64,000 nt of DNA from an uncultured Alphaproteobacteria bacterium. GTDB lineage: Bacteria; Pseudomonadota; Alphaproteobacteria; RF32; CAG-239. The notes under the pieces were generated by a model that saw nothing but the letters and a program-made list of their open reading frames with translations, did no database searches and was not told the DNA's origin. The stretch is taken from the NCBI GenBank assembly GCA_910577205.1, contig CAJTMA010000002.1, forward strand, positions 123,136 to 187,135. The letters are read 5' to 3'. Both the position numbers and the translations under genes were made by a program. Below, one piece after another: positions 1 to 64,000 of the stretch. Position 1 is the first letter of the stretch. Every line of letters begins with the position of its first letter.

Positions 1-947
1 AACCAAGCGAAAGCCGGTTCTTGAAGACTAAATCCCTGGCTCAACAGATAATAAATCAAGCCATATAATATCATATTAAAATATATCGCTTTGCGCCGCA
101 ATTCATCAATGAATAAGGCACCAAACAGTCCCCAAGCCATTGATGCGATGCCAAAAATATGCAAAAGCGGCAGAGAATAGCCAGACAAGGGCAGCAGCAT
201 GGCCGTTTTGCTTAAGATTATAATCCCGGCGATTGGTGTCGAGAGATAAGATAGCAGCATAATGCGGTTCATGCCCAGCATTCTCCATTCCTGCTGCGGA
301 GTATGAAATCCAAACAGCCCGGATTTAACAAACAAACACAAAAGCAGCAAAATACAAACCAAATCTTTGTGTTCACCGCGAGCGGCATAAAGCGAAAATC
401 TTTCCAGGCGAATGGTGTGGATATATCCCCAAAGCAAGGCAAAGAGCATAAACAGCCCCATATTTGCCAATAAATTATAGAAAATATATTTACGGCGGAC
501 ACGACTGTCATTGATTGCATAAAACCCAAAAATATCAATGATGCAAGCGCTTACCAGCAATTGAATAGCATTTTCACTGCAAATAAGCAAAGTCAGCGCC
601 GAAAGGTTAAAGCAAACCAGCCCGCTCAGGCGCAGGCGCTTTTCCTCAGCGGGAAGAAAGGTATTGAATAACAAAATCACTGCCGCCACGACAAAAAAGG
701 GCAACATCAGCATATAATGGGCGGCGTTGGAAAACATATTTATTTTGACGGGATAGTAACGCGACTTAACCCAGTCATAAGTAAAGTTATCGGTATAACC
801 GAGCTGCCAATTCTGGTATAATTTTAAGCATATCCCTGCAACAACAAAGGCCAGCAAGAGGGACAGAAATTTGGAAAATCTCTCGCCGCTGTATAGTGCC
901 GAGGCTGCGCCTATACCGATAAGCAGGAGAAAAATATCGATAATCAT
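1..947 (-). CDS. Polytopic membrane protein, 5-prime partial (runs off window start); possibly NuoN/MnhD-like proton-conducting membrane transporter family
   Basis: Open frame on minus strand from ATG at 947 to window edge, with many hydrophobic helices and a KSGLFGFHTPQQEW segment reminiscent of NuoL/M/N-type subunits. The track ORFs 106..288 and 269..538 are alternate frames of the same region. Not listed in the ORF track because it has no stop inside the window. Confidence 0.4.
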   Translation of the reverse strand, partial: MIIDIFLLLIGIGAASALYSGERFSKFLSLLLAFVVAGICLKLYQNWQLGYTDNFTYDWVKSRYYPVKINMFSNAAHYMLMLPFFVVAAVILLFNTFLPAEEKRLRLSGLVCFNLSALTLLICSENAIQLLVSACIIDIFGFYAINDSRVRRKYIFYNLLANMGLFMLFALLWGYIHTIRLERFSLYAARGEHKDLVCILLLLCLFVKSGLFGFHTPQQEWRMLGMNRIMLLSYLSTPIAGIIILSKTAMLLPLSGYSLPLLHIFGIASMAWGLFGALFIDELRRKAIYFNMILYGLIYYLLSQGFSLQEPAFAW

Positions 948-1048
948 TACGTAGTTTTCCTGTTAAAACGCCAATAACTTTTCGGTAATATAACTAAAGA
1001 ATGCCGTTTTTTAAAGTTTTATTACGCACTAATCACCAACTTGCGCGC

Positions 1049-1477
1049 CTATCTGCCATACACGCGTTTTCTCTCTTCGGCCAGCTGCGGGTTTCGCTCA
1101 AAGATGCCTTCACTGCCCCCTTTAATGATTTCATCATAATAGGCTATTTTATAATTGATTTTTTCCATATGCTTTTGCAGCTGAGCCATTTGCTCTTCCA
1201 GCTTTTGTTTTTGGCGGACAAACATATCAAGGCGTTTATGAAGAGTGGCATCCCCTTCGATGAACCAGTCTATATATTGTTTGATGTCTTTCAGCGGCAT
1301 TCCTGTCCCTTTTAAACACTCAATTAACGCCAGCCAATCCAAATCCGTTTCGGAGAAGACGCGCAGCCCCGAACCGCTTTTTTTAATAAAAGGCAGCAAT
1401 CCCTCTTTTTCATAATAACGTAAGGTATGTGTGGTTAATCCCGTTTTTTTGGCGACCTGCCCGATTGAATATCCCAT
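1049..1477 (-). CDS. MerR-family transcriptional regulator
   Basis: N-terminal HTH MGYSIGQVAKKTGLTTHTLRYYEKEGLL typical of MerR family, followed by a coiled-coil dimerisation region. Confidence 0.8.
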   Translation of the reverse strand: MGYSIGQVAKKTGLTTHTLRYYEKEGLLPFIKKSGSGLRVFSETDLDWLALIECLKGTGMPLKDIKQYIDWFIEGDATLHKRLDMFVRQKQKLEEQMAQLQKHMEKINYKIAYYDEIIKGGSEGIFERNPQLAEERKRVYGR

Positions 1478-1614
1478 ATCTAATCCTTTCTTAATTTCTT
1501 ATAAAATAACAAAACGGCATTAAGCTGTCAATAAAACACTTGACTTAGAGCAAGCTCTAACAAGTATGATGAATACAGAATCGCAATTGACTACTTTGGG
1601 GGAGATTTTTTATT

Positions 1615-2724
1615 ATGATCAGCTGTGCTGTTACGACTTCCGTTTTGGGATGCTTGGTTACAACTTACTTGTTTTTTCGCTACACTTGGTGTCTGGATTT
1701 TTCCTTGTTACAAAAATCGGCTGTTTATGCCCTGTTTCTTCTGGCCGGGTGTATTCCGCTGCTGGTTTCCTATCAAATGGAAAATTACTTAGGCAAATAT
1801 TATATTTTTTACAGATATGGTTTGTATGCTATTTTTATCGGCTGCATAATCCTTTTTACGCTGACCCTGCTGACTGACACGGCATTGCTGGCAATTTCTT
1901 ACAGCCCTCTGGCGCAGCATTTTAAGCATTTTTGCAGCTACATCAATCCGACATTAATTACAGCGGCAATTTTATGCAGTATTCTTGCGCTATATGCCGG
2001 AGTGAAAGTCCCTGACGTGAAGGAAGTTGTGATTTACTCCGATAAGATTACAGAAGAAAAAACTATTGTTTTGCTTAGCGATATTCACATTCACCGGGCT
2101 ATTTCTCCCGCAAAGGTAAAAGCAATTACAGACAAAAGCAACGCTATTTCTCCGGATATTATTCTTTTAGATGGAGATATTATTGATGACGACGTGGATA
2201 AAGTTTCCGACATTACGGCTTTGCTTAAAGGATTAAAAGCCAAACAAGGCATTTGGTTCGTGACCGGAAACCATGAATTTTATGCCGGATACAAAGAAAC
2301 GGCAGACGAGTTGCAAAAAATGGGATTTGGCTTTTTGGAAAATAACGGCGTTTCTTTGGGAGAAATTTATTTGGCAGGCATACCTGATCTCTTCTCCGGG
2401 AAAAATTATGGCAAGAATGCGGATTTATCTCAAGCTTTTGCTCAGGCAGAAGATAATCAATTCCGCTTATTGATGTCACATACACCGGTTGATTTTGGCA
2501 AGGATAACATTTTTGACCTTGAAGTTTCCGGTCATACCCATGGCGGGCAGATTTTTCCGTTTCATGTGTTGGCGAAGCTTCATAACCGTTATCTTGCCGG
2601 ATTATATCAAATGGAAAACGGCGCACAAATTTATGTCACCCGAGGAGCAGGCCAATGGGGACCGCAAATGCGATTTTTAGCCCCTTCAGAAATAACGGTT
2701 ATCAGACTGGCTTCCCTCAAATAA
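1615..2724 (+). CDS. Membrane-anchored calcineurin-like metallophosphoesterase
   Basis: N-terminal TM helices, then metallophosphatase motifs DIHIH, GDIID, GNHEF and GHTHGG. Confidence 0.75.
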   Translation: MISCAVTTSVLGCLVTTYLFFRYTWCLDFSLLQKSAVYALFLLAGCIPLLVSYQMENYLGKYYIFYRYGLYAIFIGCIILFTLTLLTDTALLAISYSPLAQHFKHFCSYINPTLITAAILCSILALYAGVKVPDVKEVVIYSDKITEEKTIVLLSDIHIHRAISPAKVKAITDKSNAISPDIILLDGDIIDDDVDKVSDITALLKGLKAKQGIWFVTGNHEFYAGYKETADELQKMGFGFLENNGVSLGEIYLAGIPDLFSGKNYGKNADLSQAFAQAEDNQFRLLMSHTPVDFGKDNIFDLEVSGHTHGGQIFPFHVLAKLHNRYLAGLYQMENGAQIYVTRGAGQWGPQMRFLAPSEITVIRLASLK

Positions 2725-2780
2725 CAATTGCAAAAAGGACGCTGTTTTATTACAGCGTCCTTAATGTTTGGAGATTTCGG

Positions 2781-4598
2781 TTAAAATCTCGGACAAGCGT
2801 CAGCTTGGCTTTTTTCTACATAAATAATATCATATGAACGTATTGTATCTGTCGCTTGAACCTGAATTGTACATTCTCCGCCGAAACAATTAAAGTATGT
2901 CGCATTTTGGATTGTACAAAATCTGTATTCTTTATCATTGATGTATATGTTACTGACGGACAACTGGATTTCCCCGTTTAGCAAAGCTTTGGACTGATTA
3001 AGCTCCATTACCCGACGTGAACCGCTGCAATAGCCATACATAAAGAACAAACGCGTATTATTGCCCGGTTCTTTATAATAAGCCGTCGTATACGGACCGC
3101 CACTACACGCCTCAGCATCGGGCATGACTTCGTTAATTGTTATTGTATTTTTGCATTGTCCATAGCAAGTCAGCCCTTTGTATGATACTGTCGTACACGT
3201 ATGGCCATTTGTTTTATCTAAATAACCACCATCTGAACATTTAGCCGCAACTACACAGCTATTTCCGCTTTGCATATATCCAGATTTACAAGTCCAAGCG
3301 GAGCATTTGAGAGAGCAATCATTGTAATAAGCGGAACATACGGCATTTGCGGGAATAGTCACGGCTGTCCGGTTATGACAGTTATCGCCATAAGCTATTT
3401 CGCATTTGGAGGGACAATCGCTCCAGGTTTTGGCGCAGCCATAAACTGTTGATGTTGAGTTGCGGTTATGGCAGTTATCGGGATAAGCAATCTGGCATTT
3501 TGACGTGCAATCTCCCCAAACCTGTTTACAGCCATATGGCGCGGATACGGCACTGCGGTTGCGGCAGTTGTCCGGATAAGCCCGTTCGCATTTAGAACTG
3601 CAATCGCTCCAATATTTTTCGCAGCCATAAGGCGCTGGCACAGAAGAGCGATTTCGGCAGTTATCAGCGTAAGCAACCTGACATTTTGACGCGCAGTCCC
3701 CCCATGCGCTCTGGCAGCCATAAGGCGCGTTAACCGAACCCCGGTTATGGCAGTTATCGGGATAAGCAATCTGGCATTTTGACGCACAATCTCCCCAAGC
3801 CTGCTTACAGCCATAAGGTGTAGGTACGGCATTACGATTGCGGCAGTTGTCTGTATAAGCCCGTTCGCATTTAGAGCCGCAATCGCCCCAATATTTCTCA
3901 CAGCCATAAGGCGTTTGAGCCGAGGCACGGTTACGGCAGTTATCCGCATAGGCTACTCTGCATACAGAGCCGCAAGGCGAAGGATAATATGTTTGGCATC
4001 CGTAAGGCGTTGGCACGCTGGTCGGACAGGTACAAGTCTGGTATCTTGTTCCGCTGTCATCCGTGCAGGCCGCTCCTTTAATCTGTGGCGCAACACAAGA
4101 AGCATAGGGATAAGTAGCCGGATCGCAATAACATTTATATTTGCCGCCACAAGTGTCAGAACTCAGTTTTTTAGGGGCGGCACATTGTGAGGGATTGTAT
4201 TTGTAGGTTGCATCACAACATTTGTCGTAAATCTTGTCATTATATGGGCAAGATTTATTAAACAACCCCGAAGCACAAGACTTAACAGTGAAGCCATAAC
4301 GGGCACAGGTTGTGTCTGTGGGATCGCCAAATTCATTTCCCATTCCAGCAGGACTGAAATTTTGTTCTTTATTATTGGTGATAAAATAGACGCCAGCGGT
4401 TTTATAGGCAGAAGCCGGCAGACGGGTAACCCCGCCTGCCAGTGATAAGGTTTCAAAAGTTTGGCTTTGATTTTGTTCTGCGAGGTGCGTGTATGATAAA
4501 GAGTTAACCTCAGGAGAAACCGTTAAAGCCTGAGCTTGAACGGCAGCAGCTGTTACTGCGATAGCAGATAAGCCCGAAAGAAGACCGACTTTCATCAT
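2781..4598 (-). CDS. Secreted cysteine-rich tandem-repeat protein (family member 1)
   Basis: Signal peptide MMKVGLLSGLSAIAVTAAAVQAQA. About seven 31-aa repeats PYGCxxxWGDCxSKCxxAYxDNC(R/H)NR. Cys-rich N- and C-terminal domains. N-terminus paralogous to the partial ORF at 63678. Confidence 0.7.
   Translation of the reverse strand: MMKVGLLSGLSAIAVTAAAVQAQALTVSPEVNSLSYTHLAEQNQSQTFETLSLAGGVTRLPASAYKTAGVYFITNNKEQNFSPAGMGNEFGDPTDTTCARYGFTVKSCASGLFNKSCPYNDKIYDKCCDATYKYNPSQCAAPKKLSSDTCGGKYKCYCDPATYPYASCVAPQIKGAACTDDSGTRYQTCTCPTSVPTPYGCQTYYPSPCGSVCRVAYADNCRNRASAQTPYGCEKYWGDCGSKCERAYTDNCRNRNAVPTPYGCKQAWGDCASKCQIAYPDNCHNRGSVNAPYGCQSAWGDCASKCQVAYADNCRNRSSVPAPYGCEKYWSDCSSKCERAYPDNCRNRSAVSAPYGCKQVWGDCTSKCQIAYPDNCHNRNSTSTVYGCAKTWSDCPSKCEIAYGDNCHNRTAVTIPANAVCSAYYNDCSLKCSAWTCKSGYMQSGNSCVVAAKCSDGGYLDKTNGHTCTTVSYKGLTCYGQCKNTITINEVMPDAEACSGGPYTTAYYKEPGNNTRLFFMYGYCSGSRRVMELNQSKALLNGEIQLSVSNIYINDKEYRFCTIQNATYFNCFGGECTIQVQATDTIRSYDIIYVEKSQADACPRF
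3351..4007 (-). repeat. About seven tandem 93-bp (31-codon) in-frame repeats inside CDS 2781..4598, with higher-order 279-bp identity
   Basis: Identical 40-mers (ggttatggcagttatcgggataagcaatctggcattttgacg) recur at about 3466 and 3745, a 279-bp spacing. The protein shows the PYGC...NCRNR periodicity. Confidence 0.75.
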
Positions 4599-4713
4599 AC
4601 ACCTCTCTTATAACTGAAACCATATCAATCATAAGATTACCACACCCGCTGTAATCTGTCAAGCATTAATAAGGGTCGGGTTTTTATTCGTCTAAAATTC
4701 TTAGATAATTCGC

Positions 4714-4742
4714 ATAAAAAAGGCCTCCAAATTAAGGAGGCC
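4714..4742 (-). terminator. Rho-independent terminator for CDS 4775..5275
   Basis: ggcctcc-aaattaa-ggaggcc hairpin followed by a T-run on the minus strand. Confidence 0.6.
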
Positions 4743-4774
4743 CGTATAGAGAAGTTTGCAGGTTAAATTGAAGA

Positions 4775-5275
4775 TTAGCAGCCAAGCCGCGCCAGGCATT
4801 CCGTATCCCAACAGCCTACCGTGCTGACATTATGCAGATTATGAACATAATTGGTAAATTCGCGTTTGAAAACGGTTATATCTCCGAAGCCCTGAGCAAT
4901 AAAAGCTGCCGCTGCGATATCGGCATAAGTTTTGGCATCAGGATTTATGGAAGCCAGAACATTTAATTTCTTAATCATCAGCTGCTTGTATTTGAAATTA
5001 TCTTTACCGAGAACTTTCATTGAGCTGATATCTTCCATTGTTTTGCGGACATTGTCACCGTTGCGGGCAATTTGAAATTTTGCCAAGCTGGCATCGTAAT
5101 TAACCAGTGCATCAAAATTTTTGACTTTATTAACAATACTGACAGCTTCTGCCTGAGGATATTCATTCTGAAGTGTATCTAACAAGAGCGAGAAAATATG
5201 CCCTTTGTTGCTTTTGGCTTTTTCAATCTTTTTAATGAAAATTTCGCCTTTTGTTTCCTTAACCAGAGCTACCAT
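4775..5275 (-). CDS. Hypothetical protein
   Basis: 166-aa ORF with its own terminator. No recognisable motif. Confidence 0.5.
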   Translation of the reverse strand: MVALVKETKGEIFIKKIEKAKSNKGHIFSLLLDTLQNEYPQAEAVSIVNKVKNFDALVNYDASLAKFQIARNGDNVRKTMEDISSMKVLGKDNFKYKQLMIKKLNVLASINPDAKTYADIAAAAFIAQGFGDITVFKREFTNYVHNLHNVSTVGCWDTECLARLGC

Positions 5276-5384
5276 GTTTACACTCCTTTGCCATAATTAT
5301 ATTCATTTATCTGTATGAGTTTAGTATAACACAAAATTGGCAGGCAAACAACATCTTTTTGTAACAAAACTGAAACAAATTTTA

Positions 5385-6389
5385 TTATAGAAAATGCCGA
5401 TACCAAAAATGTTTGGCTTTCTTCAGCAAAGGACCATAAAAAGGTGTTGCCTGGAGTTCTTCATTATCAAGAATGATAGGATTAGGGCAATTAAATATCT
5501 TCTCCCGTTTATGCCTTTCCCGGACAGCTATCCGACCGCGGCAGTCAGAGTCAATATCCAAGTGCTGAATTTGCGAAGCATCAATTGTCAGCGAGCCGCG
5601 AAAAGATTTGCCAATATAGACTTCTTTTTTACCCCAGTTTTCAGTCAGCTGCATGACGGCATAGCAGTAATACCCCGTTGTCAGGCGGTGAAAACAAGAA
5701 TCATGCAATTCAAGGCTGCCGCTGTAAACATCGCCGACAGACAAGTCAAAACACTTGCCGCTGCGCACGCAGGCAATATCACAACGGCAATTATCGCCGA
5801 GTTTGATATTTAATAAATTTGAACGGGAAAAAGTAAGGCGGCCGTTAAAGCCCTCACCGATGATAAGCGTATCTGTCCAGAGGTTGTCGCTAAAATCCAG
5901 TTCAGCTTTAGAATTAGGGCTGATGATGATTTTATCGGTCAGGATACGGCTAAAATTTAAGCGGCAGGGTTTGAGCGTCTGCGGAATAACCAAGCGGCGT
6001 TTTTGAATATGGTTAAAACTGATGGAAAGCGTATCATAATTTTGAAAGAATGTATTCAAACGCTTTGTTGTCATTTCTGACGGCGAAAAATATTCTTCCT
6101 TGCCATCACGGATGACAACAGAAAGGGACAATGCTGCCGCAGCCTCCTGGGTCAGGCTGTATTGGTATTCTTTTACAAACTTCTGCAAGACTGAGAGATA
6201 ATTTTTATCAGCCTCTGCCGCACGATACGGACGCACAGATGAGATTTTATCCTGATATATTTCCAAAACCACTAAAGGTTCGGCATATTTATCACGCAGA
6301 ATCATCATAAATTCTTTCCCCAAGACCCGGGTCAGATAATAACCTTTTGCCAAATGAAACTGCACATCTCCGTCGTTTGTTTTCACCAT
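5385..6389 (-). CDS. Hypothetical protein; C-terminal half possibly beta-helix or bactofilin-like
   Basis: 334-aa ORF. The C-terminus has short G/V/I-rich repeats (GRLTFSRSNLLNIKLGDNCRCDIACVRSGKCFDLSVGDVYSGSLEL). Confidence 0.5.
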   Translation of the reverse strand: MVKTNDGDVQFHLAKGYYLTRVLGKEFMMILRDKYAEPLVVLEIYQDKISSVRPYRAAEADKNYLSVLQKFVKEYQYSLTQEAAAALSLSVVIRDGKEEYFSPSEMTTKRLNTFFQNYDTLSISFNHIQKRRLVIPQTLKPCRLNFSRILTDKIIISPNSKAELDFSDNLWTDTLIIGEGFNGRLTFSRSNLLNIKLGDNCRCDIACVRSGKCFDLSVGDVYSGSLELHDSCFHRLTTGYYCYAVMQLTENWGKKEVYIGKSFRGSLTIDASQIQHLDIDSDCRGRIAVRERHKREKIFNCPNPIILDNEELQATPFYGPLLKKAKHFWYRHFL

Positions 6390-6560
6390 TCCCTCCCCTA
6401 AAAAAACGCAGCTTTAATGATAAGCTGAATCTAAGAACAGGCTGTGCAAATTCAATATAACTGTTCGGTTTAGGCCTCAGCGCCGCGGCTTGTGGAGAGC
6501 ACGGGATTTTTATTTGATTATTGGGAGAAACTGCTGTATCACTATGGGCAGGAGAAATTT

Positions 6561-7268
6561 ATGCAGAGAATTTGTTATTCATCGGAAGTATATCATCTTG
6601 ACCCGCAGGATTTGGCTGTGCTGGCCGACAGCCCGGACAGGATTGCTGCGGACAGTTCTGACAGCGTGGTTGTGTTAATCGGTGAAAAAGATATTTATGA
6701 TGCCAATAAGCCAGTGGTTTACGATACCCTGCTTAAAGGCCGGGAAATTGTTGAAAAAGCAGTTGCTGAAGGCAAAGCATTTATTCCCGTGCGAATTGCT
6801 TTTATTTCGCGTATCGGCAAGTGGGATTTTGTTTCCCCCTTAATCCGTGTACTGCGCTATAAATATAAAGCATACTCCAGCCATATATACCATATCAACC
6901 CGTTTGAAATCCGCAGTCTGAAAATCGAACGCAGTTTTCGCACGCCGGAAAATGCTTATCAATTCTCCAACCCTAAATACCAAATGTCTGAAGAAGAACG
7001 AAAAAAAATGTATCAGCAGCTCAAAGACAGCATGAGCACCCACGGCTATGACGACCGGTTTCCGCTGGATATTATGTTATGCCGCAATTTTGGCATTCAG
7101 GACACGTTAAACCAAGGACATCATCGGATGGGCGTTGCCATAGACTGCAATATCCAACGGGTTTCGGTGATGTTTTCTGCGGCAGGACAAGCCCCGCGTT
7201 TTCTGCATCCGCTGTTTAGGGTTGCCGCCCGGTTTAACTTGTGGTTCAAACAGTTATTTCAAAAATGA
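6561..7268 (+). CDS. Hypothetical protein, first gene of a three-gene operon
   Basis: ATG at 6561 preceded by AGGAGA at 6-nt spacing. The track start at 6492 is GTG. The stop is 9 nt before the next gene. Confidence 0.5.
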   Translation: MQRICYSSEVYHLDPQDLAVLADSPDRIAADSSDSVVVLIGEKDIYDANKPVVYDTLLKGREIVEKAVAEGKAFIPVRIAFISRIGKWDFVSPLIRVLRYKYKAYSSHIYHINPFEIRSLKIERSFRTPENAYQFSNPKYQMSEEERKKMYQQLKDSMSTHGYDDRFPLDIMLCRNFGIQDTLNQGHHRMGVAIDCNIQRVSVMFSAAGQAPRFLHPLFRVAARFNLWFKQLFQK

Positions 7269-7276
7269 GGCTGCCG

Positions 7277-8335
7277 ATGAAAAAAATTATTCATGTTTCC
7301 AATTTCAATCTTCTGCGCCTCAAAGGCTGCTTTCAGGTTGGTTTTCCTTTTAAAATTTCAAACGGGTTAATCCGCGCCGGCTATTCCGTTTTGAATTATC
7401 CTGACCGCGATTTGTGCCGGATGTTTGGGTTCGGGCATATGAATTTTATCGGGCAAAACCGGTTAAACAAACATTTGATTAATTACTGCAAAATGACAGA
7501 ACCTGATGCAATAGTCATCGGGCACGCCGACCTCATCCGCACAGATACACTGTTGGAAATAAAAAAGCTGTTTCCGCAGCTTAAAATCATGCAATGGAGT
7601 TGTGACTGGATTATGCCGGGATATGCCGAGCGCAACATCAAGGCCTTAACCTCGCGACTGGAAGCCGTCGATTTAACCATGGTCACCACCGGAGATAAGA
7701 AGCTGTTGCAACAATTCAGCCGCCAGGGAAAAGCTGCCGGTTATCTGCCAAACATTGCAGATGACAGCATTGAAACAGGGCGCGCATTTGAAACAGAAAC
7801 CCTGCCCTATGACATCATGCTTTGCGCCAATACCGGGAAACGCCAATTCTGCGGCACGGATGAAGAAGTTGATAAGATTATTGACGAGGCATCCCGTCGC
7901 GTTCCGGGATTAAAATGGAAACTGGCAGGCATAAAAAACGCCCCCGCGCTGAACGGTTATGCTTATATACGCGCGCTGGGCGAAAGTGCCATGGGATTTA
8001 ATTTAAGCCGGTTAAACGATATTTATCTGTATAGTTCTGATCGGATGGTTCATGGCATGGCTAACGGGCAGCTCGCATTATTGGACAAGCGCAACGGCTT
8101 TCAGGATTTGTTTACTGAAAACGAAGCTGTTTTTTATGACACTCCCGAAGAATTTTATGACAAACTGGCGTTCTATAAAAATAATCCGCAAGCCAGAATG
8201 AAAATCGCTGCCGCCGGACATCAGAAAATTCATCAGGAATACGGCATTACGCCTGTTTGCCGCTATATGGCAGACTTGCTGTTTGAAAACAAAACGGAAA
8301 CTTCCCGCCCCTGGCAGATTTTAATCAAGGACTAA
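7277..8335 (+). CDS. CgeB-like glycosyltransferase (DUF3880 / Glyco_trans_1_2-like)
   Basis: C-terminal AVFYDTPEEFYDKLAFYKNNPQARMKIAAAGHQKIHQEYGITPVCRYM resembles the CgeB-family C-terminal signature. GAGG RBS before ATG 7277. Confidence 0.55.
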   Translation: MKKIIHVSNFNLLRLKGCFQVGFPFKISNGLIRAGYSVLNYPDRDLCRMFGFGHMNFIGQNRLNKHLINYCKMTEPDAIVIGHADLIRTDTLLEIKKLFPQLKIMQWSCDWIMPGYAERNIKALTSRLEAVDLTMVTTGDKKLLQQFSRQGKAAGYLPNIADDSIETGRAFETETLPYDIMLCANTGKRQFCGTDEEVDKIIDEASRRVPGLKWKLAGIKNAPALNGYAYIRALGESAMGFNLSRLNDIYLYSSDRMVHGMANGQLALLDKRNGFQDLFTENEAVFYDTPEEFYDKLAFYKNNPQARMKIAAAGHQKIHQEYGITPVCRYMADLLFENKTETSRPWQILIKD

Positions 8336-8337
8336 TT

Positions 8338-8961
8338 ATGAACTACAATCACCAAGCAGCACAAACACTTTGGCATCAGTTTCAGGAGCGTTATAAAAGC
8401 CAGCTGACGCCGGCAATCCTTAAAGCCGGCGAATTTGCCCTGGAAGCACACCGCGGGCAAACCCGCAAATTAGACGGCACGCCTTATGTTTCCCATGTGT
8501 ATCATGTTGCGGGGATTATGCTGGATAATAATTTGGGAGAAAATACAGTTATTGCTGGCATTCTGCACGATATTATTGAAGATACCGAGCAAACGGCAGA
8601 AGACATTAAAGCTTTGTTTTCCGCCGAACAAGGCGAAGATGTGCTGCGCATTATCACAGCGGATAATGAGAGCAACAAAGCTGCCCCTTGGTGTGAGCGC
8701 AAGCAGGAAACCATTAATTACGCGCGCGAAACGACTGATACAGACGGCCTGCTTCTAATCTGCACCGATAAGATTTCTAACATGACCTCTATGGTTTGCG
8801 GATTGGAAGCTGACGGCGATTTGATGTGGCATTATTTTCACAGCCCTAAAGACAAACAGATATGGTATTATGAATCGCTGTATGACATTTTCAAAGATAA
8901 ATTAACAGATTACGAAGTTCTACTCAATCGCTACTTTAATCTTTTAAATCTGCTAAAATAA
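8338..8961 (+). CDS. Small alarmone hydrolase: RelA/SpoT-type HD-domain (p)ppGpp pyrophosphohydrolase, Mesh1/SAH-like
   Basis: AHRGQTRKLDGTPYVSHVYHVAGIML...VIAGILHDIIEDTEQTAEDIKALF matches the SpoT HD hydrolase motif AHxGQxRKSGEPYIxHPLxVAxILA...AALLHDVVEDT. 207 aa with no synthetase domain. Start 2 nt after the CgeB-like stop. Confidence 0.75.
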   Translation: MNYNHQAAQTLWHQFQERYKSQLTPAILKAGEFALEAHRGQTRKLDGTPYVSHVYHVAGIMLDNNLGENTVIAGILHDIIEDTEQTAEDIKALFSAEQGEDVLRIITADNESNKAAPWCERKQETINYARETTDTDGLLLICTDKISNMTSMVCGLEADGDLMWHYFHSPKDKQIWYYESLYDIFKDKLTDYEVLLNRYFNLLNLLK

Positions 8962-10038
8962 TCAATAGCGGATAATTTGATTCAATATCGTATCTTTATC
9001 TATTATTTGCAAAGCCCGGGCAAAACTATCCGGTTCGCTTAAGACGGTATAGTAATTAGCCTTGATTGTCGGCGCCATTTGCAAGGCTTTGATAAAGTCA
9101 TCTTTGCTCAACGGGTCTTGTTTAATATAATTGAAAAATCCGGTAACAGATAAAATATCGCGCACATACGAAGTGCTCGGATTATTTTGCAGCAGCGCGC
9201 AGAGGTAAGTTGCTACGCCGACTTGCAGTCCATGCATACGCGGGCGGCGAGATACCGCATCCAAACCATGGGAAATCAAATGTTCCGAACCGCTGGCCGG
9301 ACGTGAACTTCCGGCAATTTCCATGGCGATACCGCTGGTCAGCAGCGAATTGACCAAGCTGCGCTGAAATGATGTTTCGTTGATATTAGTACTATGCTTA
9401 TTGAAAAGTAAGGTCAGCGAATTGTAAGACATCAGTGAAGCGAAGTCATTATAGCGGTCAAGACCGCGCTCTGCCGCCTGTTTCCAATCATAAAGGGCGG
9501 TAATTTTAGAAACCATGTCCCCCACGCCGGAGTACAGGCAAATCTGCGGGGATTCCTTGATAACATCCAAGTCTGCAACTACACCAAAAGGTATGCTGGC
9601 TTTGACGGTTTTGCGCTTGCCATCGACTATCAGCGATGAATTGGGACTGCAAAATCCGTCATTGGACGTAGACGTCGGCACAGAAATAAAAGGCAGCCGG
9701 AGCAAGTGAGCACAAAACTTAGCAAAATCCAAAGCTTTTCCGCCGCCGATACCGATAATAACATCGGTTGTTTTGGGCAGGTTAAAGGTGATTTTGGTGA
9801 TTTCTTCAATGTTAATAAAGCGGACATCCTGTTCATAAACAATTTTGACCTTGTTTTCTTCCATACCGGGATAGAACCGCTCCGACAAAAGGTGTTGAAT
9901 ACCTTCGCTCCAGAAAACCGCAGCATTAAAAAGATTTTTATCGGCCAAATATTTGCCGATTTTTTTGACTTTGCCGCTGCCGATTTTTAACAGGTAGGGA
10001 ATATTAATTTGTTTGTTGGGATAAGGCGCGTAAAACAT
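8962..10038 (-). CDS. Dehydroquinate-synthase-like / iron-containing alcohol dehydrogenase superfamily enzyme, possibly glycerol-1-phosphate dehydrogenase (AraM/EgsA-like)
   Basis: GIGGGKALDFAKF nucleotide-binding motif and PTSTSNDGF. Strong AGGAGA RBS. Confidence 0.6.
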   Translation of the reverse strand: MFYAPYPNKQINIPYLLKIGSGKVKKIGKYLADKNLFNAAVFWSEGIQHLLSERFYPGMEENKVKIVYEQDVRFINIEEITKITFNLPKTTDVIIGIGGGKALDFAKFCAHLLRLPFISVPTSTSNDGFCSPNSSLIVDGKRKTVKASIPFGVVADLDVIKESPQICLYSGVGDMVSKITALYDWKQAAERGLDRYNDFASLMSYNSLTLLFNKHSTNINETSFQRSLVNSLLTSGIAMEIAGSSRPASGSEHLISHGLDAVSRRPRMHGLQVGVATYLCALLQNNPSTSYVRDILSVTGFFNYIKQDPLSKDDFIKALQMAPTIKANYYTVLSEPDSFARALQIIDKDTILNQIIRY

Positions 10039-14273: not shown

Positions 14274-14475
14274 ATTCCTGTCCCTTAATCGTTATGATGA
14301 TTAAAAAAGCTACTCAAATCTATTCATTTAAGCAACTGATTTTTACCGTTAAAAGCATAAATCTTAAAAAAACATTAAAAAACGTGGTATAACTTTGCTG
14401 GCTGATTGACGAGAAACGCTCCATTGGTTAACAATACCTTGTCGACATTTATTTTTTAACCATGGTAGCAGATTG

Positions 14476-17400
14476 ATGACTTTTAAAATTTTCAATTTCA
14501 GGAGCATTGTTACATATCTGACAATTGTATCTTTTTATATTGCCTCAACGGTTTCAGCCGTTGCTGCTCCTATGCCGCCTATCAGCCTGGCACAAATGTA
14601 CAGCTTAGCAGCGCAGGGCAATGTCCGCGCGCTGAGAGCCGCGGTTCAGCGCGGTTTGAACATTGACGCTACCGACCGCTATGGCAACACCGGCTTATGT
14701 CACTCAATCTACCAGCATAACTACACTGCTTATAACGCTTTTCACGCATCCGGCGCGAACACACGCCATCCCTGCATTCAGAATATTCCGACCGAGCAAT
14801 ATGATTATTTTATGAACTCAAGCAGGGTTCAACCTATTACGGCGACTCCGCGTGATGCTTATAAAGAATTTGCTGACGGCGAATTTATTTTCTCCACGAC
14901 CACTTGGGTTGTCGGCGGTCTGCTGCTTGCCGGCGGAATCACAGCTTTAGTTTTGAGCAGCGGCGGCAAAAAGAAAAAGAAAGCTTATTACTTTCCGCCA
15001 AACAATGATAATACATTTAAGCCAACAGATGACAGTTTAGCTGCTTTTGCCGGAACTTTGACACCCTCTGATCCGGTCAGCAATCCTTATGTTCCGGTCA
15101 AAATTACCAATGGCTTAAACACGACTGACTTTATTTTAAATAATGACTCCCAAATTACGCTGGATGACGGCAGCAAAAAAAGTTTGGTTGATACCATTAA
15201 CTTTAACGACTCAGTTTTGGAATACAGTAAATATCTGCAAGTGGGTATGAAAGCTATTGACGGCAATCAGGTGGTTAACGGGCAAATTCCGTTAACGGGA
15301 ACAGAAGTCGGCACCACGATTACGCTCCTGAATAATACTGTCGGTATGGCTGCTTTGCATAATGCCAATGCTATCAATAACAATACATTAAAAATCATTG
15401 CCCGCAACGGCACTCTGGGGATGGTCGGCAGTGACCGCTCTTTGATACGCAACAACGGCAATATTGATATTGCCTTTCAGGGAACGTCCCCAACGGATCA
15501 GGTTAACGGAATGTACGTGGACACGTCGTCAACGGCTATTAATGACGGCAAGATTACCGGAAATGTTGCCGTAGACAGCGCCACGGGTACTCTTATCGGA
15601 ATGCAGGGACGCTTGATTAATCAAGTGTCTAATCCGGCCGGTTCTATCCCTATTCAACTGACAAACAACGGAAAAATTGAATTAAGCGCCACAGCGGCCG
15701 CGGGGAAAACCATTTCCAACTCGCTTATCGGGATGGGCAGTTTTCTGGAAAAAGCTTTTCTGGAAGGTACTAAACTGCTGCGTCGCACAGGTTTTATCGA
15801 TATTGCAAACTACGGCGATATTGATTTGAACGTTAATCTGGGCGATACCGGGACTTATGACTCGACACAGAGCAACCTTTATGACGGTACGGGCGGCATT
15901 ATCGGTATTCGTGCCGATGCGCACACCACCGCTTCCAATAACGGTAATATTAATTTGACTATTGCTCCGGAAAGCGCCGCCGGAATCGAAAATTCTCATG
16001 CCGGTATGTTCTCTGTTCATGGCGGAACGATTTCCAATAACAAAAACATCACCATCAGCGGCGGCATTGGCGGCTATGGGATGCTCGGGGTACGCGGCGA
16101 AGGCACTAACTCTGAATTTAACACTTTAAACCCGACTATTGTCAATTCGGCTTCCGGGACAATTACCGTTAACAGTGTTGACGGTTTTGGTATGGCAACC
16201 AGACATGGCGGCACTGTCGTTAATAACGGCACGATTATTATGGGCGACAAAGGTACTGGCTTACAGATTAATGCCGGAAGCGGCTCTAATACCGGCACAA
16301 TTACGCTTAATAACGGCGGTATCGGTATGGCGATTAAGAAAAACACGACTTCCAGCGATGGAACTATTTATAATGCCAGCACGGCCAAGCTGCAAAATGA
16401 AAACATAATTACAATCAACAACGCGAACGGCTCAAGCGGTATGTATATTGAAGACGGCCTGGCTAATAACTTAGGCGGCGTGATTAATGTCAACGGCATT
16501 AACACCACAACGGAATCGTCTTATGGTATCCGGGCGCTTAACGGAAAAGTTTTAAACAGCGGCGAAATCAATATGAATGTTCTGTTGTCCGGCGATTTGG
16601 ATTCTTACGGCATTTACGGGGATAACGCAACGACTGTCAATAACAGCGGAACAATTACATCTGTCCGCAAAGGCACGGGTATTTATACTACAAGCGGTTC
16701 AAGCACCAACTCTGGCAAAATTACCATGAACGGCCGGGGCAGCACGGGCATGGCTTCAGAAAGCGGCGCAATTACCAATACGGATAAAGGCGAAATAACC
16801 GTTATCAGCGGCACTGGTATCAAATCAACATCCGGACAAGTGATAAATGAAGGTAAAGTGATTATCACCGATGGCTCGGCATCAACCGGTATCTCCAGCG
16901 GCAGCAGTGTTATTAACTCCGGTTCAATCTCAATTACCGGCGCGGATTCGACCGGTATTGCCGTTGAAGAAAACGGCACAGCCTCCAACAGCGGTATTAT
17001 TACCCTGACCAGTAACCGTAACAGCACAGAAAACTTCGGTATGGTTTCGGCCGGAGGTGATCGGGCTCAGATTGAAAACAGCGGTATTATTACCCTAAAC
17101 GGCTATAACTACGCCTCCAGCAAAGAAAAAGGCTACGGAATGTCTATCGGTGACGGCCAAGCTATTAACAACAATATGATTACCATTAATCAGATGTACG
17201 GTTACGGCATGGCTTCCACTACCGGTACTTTGACAAATAACGGTGACATTACGTTAACCAACGGCGGTTACGGCATTAAAGGCGAAAGCGGTGAATCCTT
17301 TAACTCGGAAGGCGGCACAATTATCATTACCGGCACGCCCGTTTTGGAAAGCTCTTACGGTATGGCTATGGAAGACGGGACTGCCAAAAACTTTGGTAAA

Positions 17401-20400
17401 ATTGATGTTACCGGCAGCACGACAAATGATGCGACATATGGTATTTATGTCAATGGCGGTAACGGCATTAACCATAATCAGATTGATATGCGGTCAGACA
17501 ATGCTTATGGTATTTTTGACGCGGCATCCGGCGATGGTGCAATTACTAACTTTGCCGGCGCAGTCATCAACTTACATGGCAACAACTCTACCGGTATGCA
17601 AAGTTCCGGCAACAAAGCTGAAAACTACGGAACGATTAATATCGGCGTTAATAACGGCGGAACAGTTACCGGCGGTGTTAACGGCATCGGCATGACCGCA
17701 AATGACGGGACTACGGCCCTTAATTCCGGCCAGATTAACATGAACGGCGCAAATGCCGTCGGTATGTTTGCTGACGGCGGTACGGTTATCAACTCAGCTG
17801 ACGGCGTTATTACCATGAACGGCAATGGCGGCACAATCTTTAAAACCAGCAATGACGGTACGGCAATTAACCTGGGCGACATTGTCATTAATGCCCAAGA
17901 TTATAATCTGTTTACCACAACAGATACCGATGAAGGCAACTTTGTCAATAACGGCAATGTTACGGTCGGCGCTTCTGGATCACAGGTTATCCGCGTCGGA
18001 GATAACTCCAGCGTTACCAATAACAAAAATATTGATTTAAATGGCAGCAATGGTTTCATAATCTACACCAGCGGCAGCGGCAATGCGACCAATAACGGCA
18101 CTTTAAATATTGGTGCGGGAAGTGATAACTCGCATGGTATTTACATGAGCGAAACAGCTAACGGAACAGTTATTAATTCTTCGACAGGCATTATCAATGT
18201 TAACGGAAGCAATTCTAACGGCATGACGCTGGCTTCCAATGATACCTCTGCCAGCATTACCAACAAAGGTAAAATTAATGTCAGCGGTAATGGCTCAAAG
18301 GCGATTGCGGCCAGCAACGGCGGCACCATCAATAATGAGGGGACTATTACCATGAACGGCGGCAGCGCAGCCATTGAAGCGACTGGAGCTGTTGTCAATA
18401 ATAAAGCCGGCGCTACAATTACAACTGCCGCAAACAGCGATGCAGACGGCATAAAGGTCATCATGGGAGCAACACCTGACGCAGAAGCGGCAACGGTTAC
18501 CAATGACGGCACAATCATTATCAACGGTAATGGCGATGCTATTAATGCCAAAGGTTCGTCAACAGCCGCCGGTATGATGCATTCTATTACCAATAACAGT
18601 GTTATTACCATTAACGGTTCAGGCAGCGGCATTTTTGCAGATGCGGCAAATATCAATAACACCTCTTCGGCACGCATTAACATTAGCGGCAGCGGTTACG
18701 GCATCCGCCAGACCAGTGGTACAATCGACAACAGCGGGACAATTACAGTTACCGGAAATAACGGCACAGGTATTTCCAGCGGCGGAACGGCAACAAATAA
18801 CGGAACGATTACTGCCGGTGGAACAAATGCCAAAGGAATGGAACTTACTACAGGCGGCACAGGAACTAACAATTCCACAATTATAGCCAGCGGAACGGAT
18901 GCGGTCGGTATTTATGTTAATGGCGGCACTGCCGAGAATACAGGTAATATTTCAGCGTCAGGAACGGGCGCAACCGGCGTGTATGCAACAGGCGGAACAG
19001 CTTATAACCAGACCTCTATAAGCGTTAATGGCGATAATGCAATCGGCATGGCAGCAGGAAACGGCACAGTCACTAACGGCAAAACGATTGTCACGATTGA
19101 AACGGATGAAAGAGGCGATCCGGTTCTGGATGCTGATGGTAATGTTGTCACCAATACAGAACACAAACCCGGGGTTATTGATGTTACCGGAAATAATGCA
19201 GCCGGTATGAAATTAACCGGAACTGGAAAAGTCCTCAATAATACCGGCGCACTTATTTCTGTCAGCGGTGATGGCGCAACAGGTATTTGGGCTGCAGGCT
19301 CAGGCGTTGCCGAAAATGAAGGGACAATTACCGTATCTAACGCGACTAACGGCAGTTCGGGGATGAAAGCCACCAGCGGCACAGCCACAAATAAAGGCAC
19401 AATATCTGTCAGCGCAGACGGCGCTTGGGGAATGGATGCGGCCGGAGGCACTGTCGTCAATGACACAACCGGCATCATTGACCTTACGACAGCAAACAGT
19501 GTGGGTATTTATGTTCACAGCGGCAACGGCGAAAACAGAGGCGTTATCAACTTTACCGGAGAAAATACTATCGGGCTGTTGGCTGCCGGCGGAACAGCCA
19601 CTAATGCGGCGGATATAACAATCAACGGCACAGGTGTTGTCGGTTTATATGCTCATGGCGGAACGGTTGTTAATGCCAGCGGAAAAACTATTACCTTTAG
19701 TAACGGCGAAGCCGCTATCAAGGTTGACAGCGGCAGCGGTCGCAATGCAGGTACGATTAATGTCGACGGCGGAAACTTAAACGCTATTCTGGTTAGCGGT
19801 GGCAATGCCTCTAATGACGGCACGATAGAACTCACCTCCTCTGCCAGCGGCAGTATCGGCATGAAAGCAACTGCCGGAACAGCAACCAACAACGGGACGA
19901 TTACTATCGCCAGCAATGCGGCAGGTATGGATGCTTCCGGTTCAGGACAAGTCGCCAACAACAAAACAATTACTGTTTCCGGAGCAAATGCGGTTGGCAT
20001 GAGCGCTTCCGGCGGCACGGCGACCAATAACAGCAACGGCACGATTACAGTCACCGGAGCTAATGCGAAAGGTATGGCTGCCAGCAGCGGAACTGTCTTA
20101 AACAATGGCACAATCAATGCAACCGCAGCCAATACGATTGCGATGTATGCCAACGGCGGCACGGCCACTAACGGCAGCAGCGGCAAAATCAACACCTCGG
20201 CTTCCTCGGCATATGTTATGCTGGCTGAGGGAACAGGTACAGTCAACAACCAAGGGACAATATCTTATTCCGGTTCTGGGGCGGCCTTACAAGCGAATGG
20301 GGCAACGGCCAATAACAGCGGTATCATTACAGCCACTAACGGTACGGGCATGGCCGCGTACGGGACAGCATCTTCAGGAGGCAAAGCTGTCAACAGCGGC

Positions 20401-55735: not shown

Positions 55736-56992
55736 TTATTCTGTATAATTTTCCGTAATGATTAATGTTACATCTCCTGAGCAAGTAGCAATAGTTTCAT
55801 CATTATCATACTCCCAAGCAATCTTAACAGAACCCTTATTATAAGCGTATTCATGAAGATATTCGCCGCTATCTTCGGTTAAAAACTCCACGCCCAGAGG
55901 GAGATTTGAACAAGTCTTCGAGAAAGAAGATATATAAGCTCCGTCCCCGATATAACCAATACGCTCCGCTCCCGGATCTAAAATAATTTCTGCCCAGTTA
56001 CTCCAAGCATTAGCGCTGACATTCCCTGAAAGAGCAACCTCTGTTACCGTCCCCCTCTTCCCTGTGCTGCTCTCTACAACAATGCTGCTATCAGCTTGTT
56101 TTACAGAACATACATTTCCATTCTTTTGTCCTACAAAATTTAAATACAAATACCATTTTTCATTCGTACATACATCACCACTTTCTTTCGGCTCGCCATA
56201 ATAAACCACCGGGCGAACGTAATCATCACTATTTTTGTAATTTGTATTTTTAGTGTTATCGCTCTTGTCAAATTCCCATGCCGTCTCTTTATCATACTCA
56301 CAAGAAGACCAATACCATTTTGCTTCAAATGGCACAGTTCCATAATCTTTTAACATTGCTATTGTTGTGTCTAACAGCTTCCCAACAGAATACATTTGTG
56401 AAAATTCTTTAATGCTGGGCAGAAACCATTTTGTTTTCTTACAGAAATCCTGAGTACATCCCGCAGGCTGATAGCTATTGGCTGCCGTCGCCGCCGGCGT
56501 TCCGCCACAGCTGCTTCCACAGGCTAATATTTTATCCGTATTAGAACGACCATCCACACTACAACTATCTACCGACGCGGGATTGTCATTATATTGGCAA
56601 TTCGTTAAGTTCGGCATATCATAGCTATTGTTTGACCAATACATCGTTTCACTTCCTGCTGTGCCATCTTTCTTCACGTCAGTCAATGAAACTGCTAATT
56701 TGTTGGTTTCATCAAAAACAATACCTATTGGCGTTTTGCCGGAAATAACATTTTTGCTGACCGTACCGTCGCCATACAAAATCGGCAAAGAATTTTCAGA
56801 GGATTTTTTGGGGCAAAAAACTTTAGACATATCTGTCGGACACTTAACGGCAACTTGCCCCTCACAATCCGCCGCGCTCATCGTATAGCCTAAGTCAGCG
56901 CAGTCCGGCGCAAGGGTACAAACAGCATAAAGGGGAGAAGAATAAAGGATTGTTCCGGATAATAAAACGGACGCAAACAGGGGAGTTTTCAT
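55736..56992 (-). CDS. Secreted cysteine-rich protein (family member 2)
   Basis: Signal peptide MKTPLFASVLLSGTILYSSPLYA. 27 Cys. Same architecture class as 2781..4598. Its 3-prime end and terminator are duplicated at 54887-54960. Confidence 0.6.
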   Translation of the reverse strand: MKTPLFASVLLSGTILYSSPLYAVCTLAPDCADLGYTMSAADCEGQVAVKCPTDMSKVFCPKKSSENSLPILYGDGTVSKNVISGKTPIGIVFDETNKLAVSLTDVKKDGTAGSETMYWSNNSYDMPNLTNCQYNDNPASVDSCSVDGRSNTDKILACGSSCGGTPAATAANSYQPAGCTQDFCKKTKWFLPSIKEFSQMYSVGKLLDTTIAMLKDYGTVPFEAKWYWSSCEYDKETAWEFDKSDNTKNTNYKNSDDYVRPVVYYGEPKESGDVCTNEKWYLYLNFVGQKNGNVCSVKQADSSIVVESSTGKRGTVTEVALSGNVSANAWSNWAEIILDPGAERIGYIGDGAYISSFSKTCSNLPLGVEFLTEDSGEYLHEYAYNKGSVKIAWEYDNDETIATCSGDVTLIITENYTE

Positions 56993-63535: not shown

Positions 63536-63677
63536 TTTGCAATACGCAAACTTCTGATAAATCTTAATATCTATTCCTTTTAGACCAATAAAAAATTGCC
63601 TCTCATTAATGATTGACAGATCGCAGATTGTGTGATAGCCTTATAACTGATATGGTTTCAGTTATAAGAGAGGTGTA

Positions 63678-64000
63678 TGATGAAAGTCGGTCTTCTTCTG
63701 GGCTTATCTGCTTTGGCAGGTATCGCTGCCACCATTATAGCAGGGACTGGTGACCCTTTATCATACCCACACCTCACACAACTAAATCAAAGCCAAACTT
63801 GTGAAACCTTATCTTTGGCAGACGGGATAACCCGTCTGCCTGCTTCAGCCTATAAAACTGCTAAGGTTCATTTTGTGGTCAATTCATCTGATAAGATGGG
63901 TTTTGATTACAAGGAGCAGGAGTTTAATCACGACAATATTAACCGTTGCAAAGCACTGGGTTTTAGTAAGACAGGTGCTTGCGCTGCCGGGCAGTATGCC
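63678..64000 (+). CDS. Secreted cysteine-rich protein (family member 3), 3-prime partial; N-terminal paralog of CDS 2781..4598
   Basis: MKVGLLLGLSALAGIAATIIA...SYPHLTQLNQSQTCETLSLADGITRLPASAYKTAKV closely parallels MMKVGLLSGLSAIAVTAAA...SYTHLAEQNQSQTFETLSLAGGVTRLPASAYKTAGV. Runs off the window end. Confidence 0.6.

Follow-up and report, generated by a model that had tools for sequence, protein, structure and literature searches.

A gene on the reverse strand (2781..4598) of a 64,000-nt stretch of DNA from an uncultured gut alphaproteobacterium of the RF32 lineage (contig CAJTMA010000002.1, positions 123,136 to 187,135; hereafter, the window) encodes a cysteine-rich protein of 605 amino acids (aa), in which seven tandem copies of a 31-aa unit stand between a conserved N-terminal part and a C-terminal head. 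We found alleles with different numbers of units at the same locus, and we found that the gene belongs to a multigene family whose members have promoter, leader, and N-terminal half in common and carry unrelated heads. From these sequence data we suggest that the product is a modular protein that is exported and binds a ligand at the cell surface or outside the cell, probably as an adhesin or in a lectin-like manner; we consider the balance of probability to lie slightly in favor of this reading. In this model, the Sec signal peptide would carry the protein over the inner membrane, and its cysteines would be oxidized in the periplasm. Residues 25–196 would form a family-wide constant base serving further export and/or envelope attachment; the seven four-cysteine hairpin units would stack into a stiff, disulfide-stapled stalk, whose reach would be set by the number of units; and a cap would couple the stalk to the variable head, which would bind the ligand. 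Whole 93-bp units would be lost in frame, by recombination or deletion between them, leading from 7 to 6, 5, and 4, and paralogs would diversify by keeping near-identical 5′ halves (promoter, leader, N-terminal domain, and first units) with unrelated heads.

The gene is a single open reading frame (ORF) with its exact limits at 2781..4598 (− strand), coding for 605 aa plus the stop codon, and 56 of the 605 residues (9%) are cysteines. Read from the translation, the N-terminus MMKVGLLSGLSAIAVTAAAVQAQA|LT has the positive start, hydrophobic core, and AXA cleavage site typical of a Sec signal. This signal peptide (aa 1–24, 4527..4598, − strand; MMK, hydrophobic core, AQA|L) lacks a lipobox cysteine, and it supports an earlier note on this DNA, made from the letters alone, in calling the protein secreted, in the sense of exported. 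The segment that follows (aa 25–93, 4320..4526, − strand) has the conserved motifs NQSQ, LP.S.YK.AGVYFIT, and F.DPT, and is modeled at a predicted local distance difference test score (pLDDT) of ~45–60. In distant relatives, a VYWLPD/VRFIT motif comes directly after the signal peptide, and the mature chain of many of the larger ones opens with VYWLPD(F/Y). Next is an N-terminal cysteine-rich domain (aa 94–196, 4011..4319, − strand; pLDDT of at least 95) with ~14 invariant cysteines and the motifs CPYN and CGGKY.C.C, the domain that, judged from the alignments, defines the family. The seven tandem PYGC units (aa 197–414, 3357..4010, − strand; 96 bp and then 6 × 93 bp) lead to the cap module (aa 415–449, IPANAVCSAYYNDCSLKCSAWTCKSGYMQSGNSCV, 3252..3356, − strand), which is conserved family-wide and joins the variable head. 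The cap has the pattern C-x6-C-x2-K-x3-W-x-C-x2-GY-x-x-SGN-x-C, and P416, C421, C428, K431, C437, and C448 are invariant in the family alignment. The head itself (aa 450–605, 2784..3251, − strand) is mostly beta, contains 11 cysteines, and ends in ...ACPRF; its relatives are found only among a few family members, at 27%–47% identity.

The units are arranged head to tail and all in phase. The earlier note was right about their number and phase, but not about a uniform 93 bp: unit 1, clearly the most divergent, has a one-residue insertion and thus 32 codons (96 bp), and units 2–7 have 31 codons (93 bp) each. Their consensus, PYGC-x4-W-x-DC-x-SKC-x2-AY-x-DNC-(R/H)-NR, contains four conserved cysteines (those of YGC, DC, SKC, and DNC) instead of the six previously counted. 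Tandem Repeats Finder (TRF) reports a period of 93 with 4.8 copies, 69% matches, and a score of 338, and no short-period tract in 1..9000. DNA identity among units 2–7 ranges from 60% to 86%: it is 86% for unit 2 versus 5, 81% for unit 3 versus 6, and 60% for unit 4 versus 7. The 279-bp higher order proposed in the earlier note is therefore present for the pairs 2/5 and 3/6 and absent for 4/7. The identical 40-mers that it placed 279 bp apart do exist, the longest exact match at this offset being a 43-mer (3784..3742). The linkers between units are often N-x-S/T sequons (NRS at units 4 and 5, NST at unit 6, NRT at unit 7), the family consensus linker reads CRNRTAV, and several glycosyltransferase genes are located in the window.

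Comparison with databases left the protein outside any known family, in agreement with the earlier statement that the module could not be placed in one. Searches of the 605-aa protein returned no family of Pfam-A or NCBIfam at E ≤10 and none of PHROGs at E ≤0.01, and nothing significant was found among PDB sequences, whether the query was the protein alone or a profile of its N-terminal half or of its head. Foldseek gave no PDB match below E 0.66. The top entries were EGF-like proteins (MSP1-19, Pfs25), TNFR, and the hairpins of alpha-defensins, the likeness of a single hairpin to the latter being not significant (E >2). An AlphaFold2 model of the full-length protein, built with 39 homologues, reached a mean pLDDT of 53; its units were modeled at 65–85 with the same hairpin pattern as described below, and we discarded it for the N- and C-terminal domains, where it is too poor. 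The model of aa 25–290, built with 72 diverse relatives, has a mean pLDDT of 85 and values of at least 95 over aa 94–284. Here each unit is predicted as a beta-hairpin with a short helix after it, and the units form a continuous array that prolongs the N-terminal cysteine-rich domain without a break. The high-confidence prediction of this self-contained element supports the previous suggestion of an independently folding module. Within each modeled unit, the first cysteine (C1) is located on strand 1, C2 and C3 on strand 2, and C4 at the helix. The strand register of the predicted hairpin would set C1 opposite C3 across the hairpin, which suggests putative disulfides C1–C3 and C2–C4.

We next describe the variation at the locus itself. 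The loci with the same neighbors as the window gene are L004, L007, L008, and L011, as far as their contigs reach. In L007 and L008 both sides are kept, with genes of 166 aa and 334 aa upstream and a gene of ~370 aa (in L008, a metallophosphoesterase by Pfam) and MerR downstream; the contig of L004 covers the downstream side only, and that of L011 the upstream side only. We collected alleles within clusters of 90% identity and located their junctions by painting the allele DNA against the units of the window gene. Repeat number among relatives, which the earlier note had proposed to compare, takes the values 4, 5, 6, and 7 at this same locus, so that the invariance which would have counted against the note is not observed. 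The full array of seven units (603–605 aa) is found in P0001 and P0267, the latter on 66 contigs. In the six-unit allele P0270 (572 aa; three assemblies) unit 5 is missing. Two alleles have five units: P0271 (543 aa), in which units 4 and 5 are missing, and P0275 (542 aa), with a 3/5 hybrid. Four units are found in P0002 (511 aa; 2/5 hybrid), P0280 and P0281 (511 aa; 3/6 hybrid), P0282 (511 aa; 4/7 hybrid), and P0284 (512 aa; a further arrangement). There are at least six different in-frame junctions among these alleles. The 3/6 junction is located inside an identical stretch of 43 nt and the 2/5 junction inside one of 21 nt; at the 4/7 junction of P0282 at most 5 nt are shared, and at the unit-5 deletion of P0270, assembled three times and once on a 121-kb contig, 8 nt (TATGGCTG). 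Every short allele with a mapped junction (P0284 is not among them) can be derived from the seven-unit form by one in-frame deletion, and no allele of more than seven units was seen among the clusters examined. Family members with other heads vary as well: counting distinct sequences, which are not population frequencies, unit numbers of 2, 3, and 4 occur in both the TYTLKW and the DSNAY type, and of 2 and 3 in the CLCRR type.

This comparison does not support the description of the array as a contingency or antigenic-variation signal: the 93-bp units are only 60%–86% alike, and the in-frame changes alter the length of the protein without acting as an on/off switch. A simple-sequence contingency locus was rejected, since there is no short-period tract, no sequence of more than 43 nt recurs exactly, and all changes comprise whole codons.

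The earlier note missed the multigene family, with its common promoter, leader, and N-terminal half and its apparently swapped heads, and also the second copy in the window, described below. A block of ~100 bp before the start codon (4600..4697, − strand), delimited by alignment of upstream regions, contains a conserved promoter and 5′ leader: a −35 element TTGACA (4662..4657, − strand), a 17-nt spacer, a −10 element TAATCT (4639..4634, − strand), and a 28-nt leader (TGATATGGTTTCAGTTATAAGAGAGGTG, 4627..4600, − strand) that is invariant and contains the ribosome-binding site. This 28-mer occurs exactly twice in the window, with 0 occurrences expected. Its second copy, an exact match (63648..63675, + strand), belongs to a further family member with the same promoter and leader (63558..64000, + strand), the coding sequence (CDS) of which starts at 63677 (MMKVGLLLGLSALAG...) and runs past the window end; its nearest full-length relative is P0139, a 417-aa protein that has the N-terminal domain without PYGC units. 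The promoter block aligns upstream of this paralog, L003, and L006, and the DNA further upstream is unrelated. The leader core was found at no fewer than 120 metagenome loci, and the records whose source is named are human gut metagenome assemblies. Among the loci listed, all 59 complete ORFs downstream of the leader core start with a family signal peptide (MMKVLPWFALL… or MMKAVLGLG…) and the N-terminal sequence typical of the family, and two of the 59 stop short of any PYGC unit, at 140 and 145 aa. The leader is kept at the nucleotide level between lineages whose proteins are only ~57% identical, and it may be a family-specific regulatory element. Rfam gave only chance-level matches to it (E 0.19 or higher, far below gathering scores). 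In some relatives the leader has been mis-called as the coding sequence 'MVSVIERC'.

Protein identities among paralogs follow lineage in the N-terminal part and type in the head. N-terminal parts are 96% identical between P0001 and P0004, 97%–98% among P0042, P0010, and P0014, and 53%–63% between lineages. Heads of one type are similar across lineages (65% for P0004 versus P0042, 78% for P0004 versus P0116). In a sample of ~90× coverage, L076 and L088 are 100% identical over the first 195 aa and all three units, and their heads are unrelated; L076 shares its 312-kb contig with a third copy, L013. At the DNA level, L006 (encoding P0004) is 93.6% identical to 4710..3749 of the window and unrelated past unit 3, which places the breakpoint, in the sole case mapped in DNA, in the repeat and cap region. 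We conclude from these sequences that the 5′ half probably evolves in concert among paralogs, or that heads are swapped. Sliding-window comparison of the 5′ halves of two head types gave only weak and patchy signals of recombination. The copies are dispersed singly, each with its own promoter (paralog L012, for instance, is alone among housekeeping genes), and no silent cassettes, invertases, or immunity-like genes were seen at the copies examined.

The family alignment gives a common plan of signal peptide, NQSQ/AGVYFIT segment, N-terminal domain, PYGC units, cap, and head. We count the gene at 2781..4598 as a member by its 28-nt leader and promoter, the cysteine pattern of its N-terminal domain, its PYGC units, and the cap. 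Searches recovered 640 homologues among 5.8 billion proteins, nearly all from gut metagenome assemblies; an exhaustive search of 1.84 billion cluster representatives gave 161 clusters (50% identity) at E ≤1e-3, and a scan of genome collections gave two distant loci. The named members, close and distant, are all from metagenome-assembled genomes (MAGs) of uncultured Alphaproteobacteria. Given only 161 clusters and this uniform origin of the named members, the family is, by sequence search, narrow and confined to an alphaproteobacterial lineage. The number of units in the 120 best homologues is 2–7, with a mode of 3, and ORFs from the leader scan add 1-unit forms. Clustering of the heads gave at least 34 types, several of them small (85–110 aa) and very cysteine-rich. 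Those recognized by Pfam are Lcl_C/DUF1566 (PF07603; 8 of 39 and 6 of 99 relatives in two alignments), DUF285, BspA-type LRR_5, PKD, a pectate-lyase-like adhesive domain, the ALK/LTK glycine-rich domain, and EGF_MSP1_1 (PF12946; 5 of 39 relatives in alignment A2 and 1 of 99 in A3). Most of these domain families are typical of extracellular or surface proteins, and NCBI names one relative 'BspA family leucine-rich repeat surface protein'.

Head and N-terminal domain are also found apart from the family plan. The window encodes a secreted 418-aa protein (55736..56992, − strand) that combines a short cysteine-rich N-terminus with a DUF1566/Lcl_C-like domain (Pfam Lcl_C E 3e-6, below the curated cutoff). 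This domain is 37%–40% identical to heads such as that of P0031 (BLASTP E 4e-38), and this head module is therefore also combined with another scaffold within one genome. Stand-alone secreted proteins of ~90 aa when mature consist of the core of the N-terminal domain only (P0232, P0233, P0239, P0246, P0247, P0249, P0254, P0260, and P0262), with the motif GVRFIT...C..GY..T.C...CPY...Y..CC..Y.Y...C....CGG.Y.C.

Several observations weigh against an exported binding protein with a stalk of variable length. The head of the window protein (aa 450–605) has no Pfam or PDB match, so that no known binding domain is recognized in it, and it is modeled at low confidence in the full-length AlphaFold2 prediction. 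The constant N-terminal part (aa 25–196) has no known homologue, and its role in anchoring or export is a guess. Because no outer-membrane route, anchor motif, or lipobox was identified in the protein, its location may be periplasmic. With respect to unit number, the largest head type is invariant, with 3 units in 52 of 52 sequences; all alleles come from metagenome assemblies; and the 2/5 and 3/6 junctions could be assembler collapses. The last two points are the core of an alternative that we consider very improbable, namely, that the length alleles are artifacts of short-read assembly and that the true gene always has seven units in a stable array. De Bruijn assemblers are able to collapse repeats at identical stretches such as those in which P0281 (43 nt) and P0002 (21 nt) are joined, and the coverage of L005 is only ~3.5×. 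In contrast, the junctions of P0282 and P0270 cannot be k-mer collapses, because the 5 nt or less and the 8 nt that they share are too short, below any assembler k, and the latter allele comes from three separate assemblies. Moreover, alleles of the 511-aa class come from ENA, NCBI, and Logan assemblies and have four or more distinct junctions, and other head types also occur with 2, 3, and 4 units. We therefore take the polymorphism in unit number, as read from these assembled sequences, to be real, with little residual doubt.

The gene could also belong to a programmed variable-surface-antigen system, in which frequent gene conversion of heads and units among paralogs would let a clonal population keep altering its surface and evade antibodies or phages. 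The identical 5′ halves with different heads in one genome, the patchy identity between the alleles and L006 over the 5′ half, the polymorphism in unit number, and the promoter and leader common to all copies are in line with this idea. Yet slow concerted evolution explains the pattern equally well, no invertase, recombinase, or inverted repeats were seen flanking the locus, and each copy examined has an intact promoter and start codon, so that nothing hints at silent cassettes or a single expression site; we regard this explanation as unlikely. The layout of a constant N-terminal half and many unrelated C-termini is also the hallmark of polymorphic toxins or bacteriocins; the constant part would then handle trafficking, and the head would be a domain toxic to competitors. 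The small, very cysteine-rich heads and the weak, nonsignificant hairpin likeness to alpha-defensins would fit such a role. However, no head matches a toxin family, and those with matches are of adhesin type; no immunity-like gene follows 2781..4598, which is flanked by terminators and next to a convergent metallophosphoesterase gene; paralog L012 is similarly isolated; and there are no type 5, 6, or 7 (T5, T6, or T7) secretion genes nearby. A toxin is thus decidedly unlikely in our view. Finally, a structural or metal-binding cysteine-rich protein of the periplasm or envelope, with no role toward an external ligand, would account for the high cysteine content and for the lack of an identified outer-membrane export signal. 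This explanation we find the hardest to credit. The AlphaFold2 model places C1 and C3 on facing strands, where a cross-strand disulfide would be possible, and an exported location favors disulfides; the heads of relatives are binding domains of extracellular type, and at least 34 head types make little sense for a metal buffer.

An exported protein that bears repeats and varies in their number is of a well-known kind. By analogy of architecture, the closest experimentally studied counterpart is Lcl of Legionella pneumophila, a type II-secreted, surface-associated 'lollipop' in which a signal peptide is followed by a stalk whose repeats vary in number and by a DUF1566 head (PMC11162425, PMC6460258). 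Binding and biofilm formation correlate with the number of its repeats (PMC6460258), and its head binds glycosaminoglycans (PMC11162425). Both proteins have a signal peptide, a stalk of variable copy number after an N-terminal region (short in Lcl), and a C-terminal head, and the PF07603 head is also found on many members of the PYGC family. They differ in that the stalk here consists of 31-aa four-cysteine hairpins instead of a GXY collagen triple helix (no GXY periodicity was found in the units, aa 197–414), in that the N-terminal domain is a large cysteine-rich module instead of a 30-residue helix, and in that the head of the 605-aa protein has no PF07603 match. Given its entirely different stalk chemistry and a head that is not Lcl_C, the protein falls outside the Lcl family. 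Repeat numbers that vary among strains are also known from surface proteins of Gram-positive cocci (alpha C/Rib of group B Streptococcus, M proteins, and Sdr/Clf of Staphylococcus). As here, long repeats within the gene come and go in frame through recombination, so that length shifts and the protein survives; but the repeats of the cocci are usually near-identical, Ig-like or of low complexity, free of cysteine, and LPXTG-anchored, whereas the units described here are 60%–86% identical and cysteine-rich, with putative disulfides, in a Gram-negative lineage. Disulfide-stapled rods of 30–40 aa hairpin modules, as predicted here, are seen in extracellular proteins of eukaryotes: EGF-like domains (Pfs25, MSP1-19), the cysteine-rich domains of TNFR, and the cysteine-rich region of the Entamoeba Gal/GalNAc lectin. 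CdiA/Rhs toxins and the Vlp/Vsa proteins of Mycoplasma combine a constant 5′ or N-terminal half with diverse C-termini, and the Mycoplasma proteins vary in repeat length as well. The window gene shares the layout of the polymorphic toxins; it differs from these systems in having no toxin domain among the matches of the heads and no adjacent immunity gene, and in that neither a simple-sequence tract in the promoter nor an invertible element was seen. A full promoter precedes each copy.

The surroundings of the gene are those of an ordinary chromosome of 44% G+C. The window contains genes for MerR, metallophosphoesterase, glycosyltransferases, AdhE, PPase, FtsK, PlsX/FabH, RecJ, Mfd, and RecG, and no secretion-system genes were seen in it. 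A phage tail-fiber origin was considered and dismissed, as there are no PHROGs matches and the neighbors are housekeeping genes (Mfd, RecG, RecJ, PlsX, FabH, and AdhE). From the sequence, the gene appears to be monocistronic: a terminator was found upstream by sequence scan (4743..4721), and just past the stop codon (~2760..2732) direct reading of the sequence shows a hairpin with a T-run behind it, which is missing from the list of the terminator scan. Within the repeat array, another frame of the same strand contains an ORF of 184 aa (3395..3949, − strand), which we take for a by-product of the periodic sequence and not for a real gene. Synteny with L003 stops ~100 bp upstream of the gene, where HU and Lon are found in L003; the window (4775..6389 and beyond), L007, L008, and L011 have instead genes of 166 aa, 334 aa, and 235/258 aa, without Pfam or PHROGs matches, and a glycosyltransferase. 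The segment upstream of ~4697 thus looks like a strain-variable insertion adjoining the gene. Elsewhere in the window, a giant ORF that starts with TTG and encodes 2596 aa (14473..22263, + strand) has zero Pfam matches, and in the related genome L012 a family member adjoins a histidine-phosphatase gene homologous to the one near this ORF.

The N-terminal domain, the 31-aa module, and the organization of the family are undescribed, and a search of the literature on the RF32 gut lineage yielded nothing on them. The N-terminal domain and the unit are predicted with pLDDT of at least 95 and yet are unlike anything in Pfam, NCBIfam, or the PDB, which makes them good targets for the definition of a new domain family and for structural work. 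The 28-nt leader and the alleles of four to seven units can serve directly as markers, both to type strains and to track the family in metagenomes. Judging by the metagenome records that bear the leader, the human gut commonly harbors these Alphaproteobacteria, and to our knowledge their interactions with the host or with other microbes are largely unstudied. It is conceivable, though we think it unlikely, that the family constitutes a dedicated surface-variation system of gut Alphaproteobacteria, in which the common 5′ half would serve as a recombination substrate to reshuffle heads and unit number among the dispersed copies. If this were true, a disulfide-rich fold new to bacteria would underlie the adhesive or antigenic variation. 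Given its 34 or more alternative tips on what would be an adjustable stalk, the family is an obvious candidate for attachment to the host, to mucus, or between cells.

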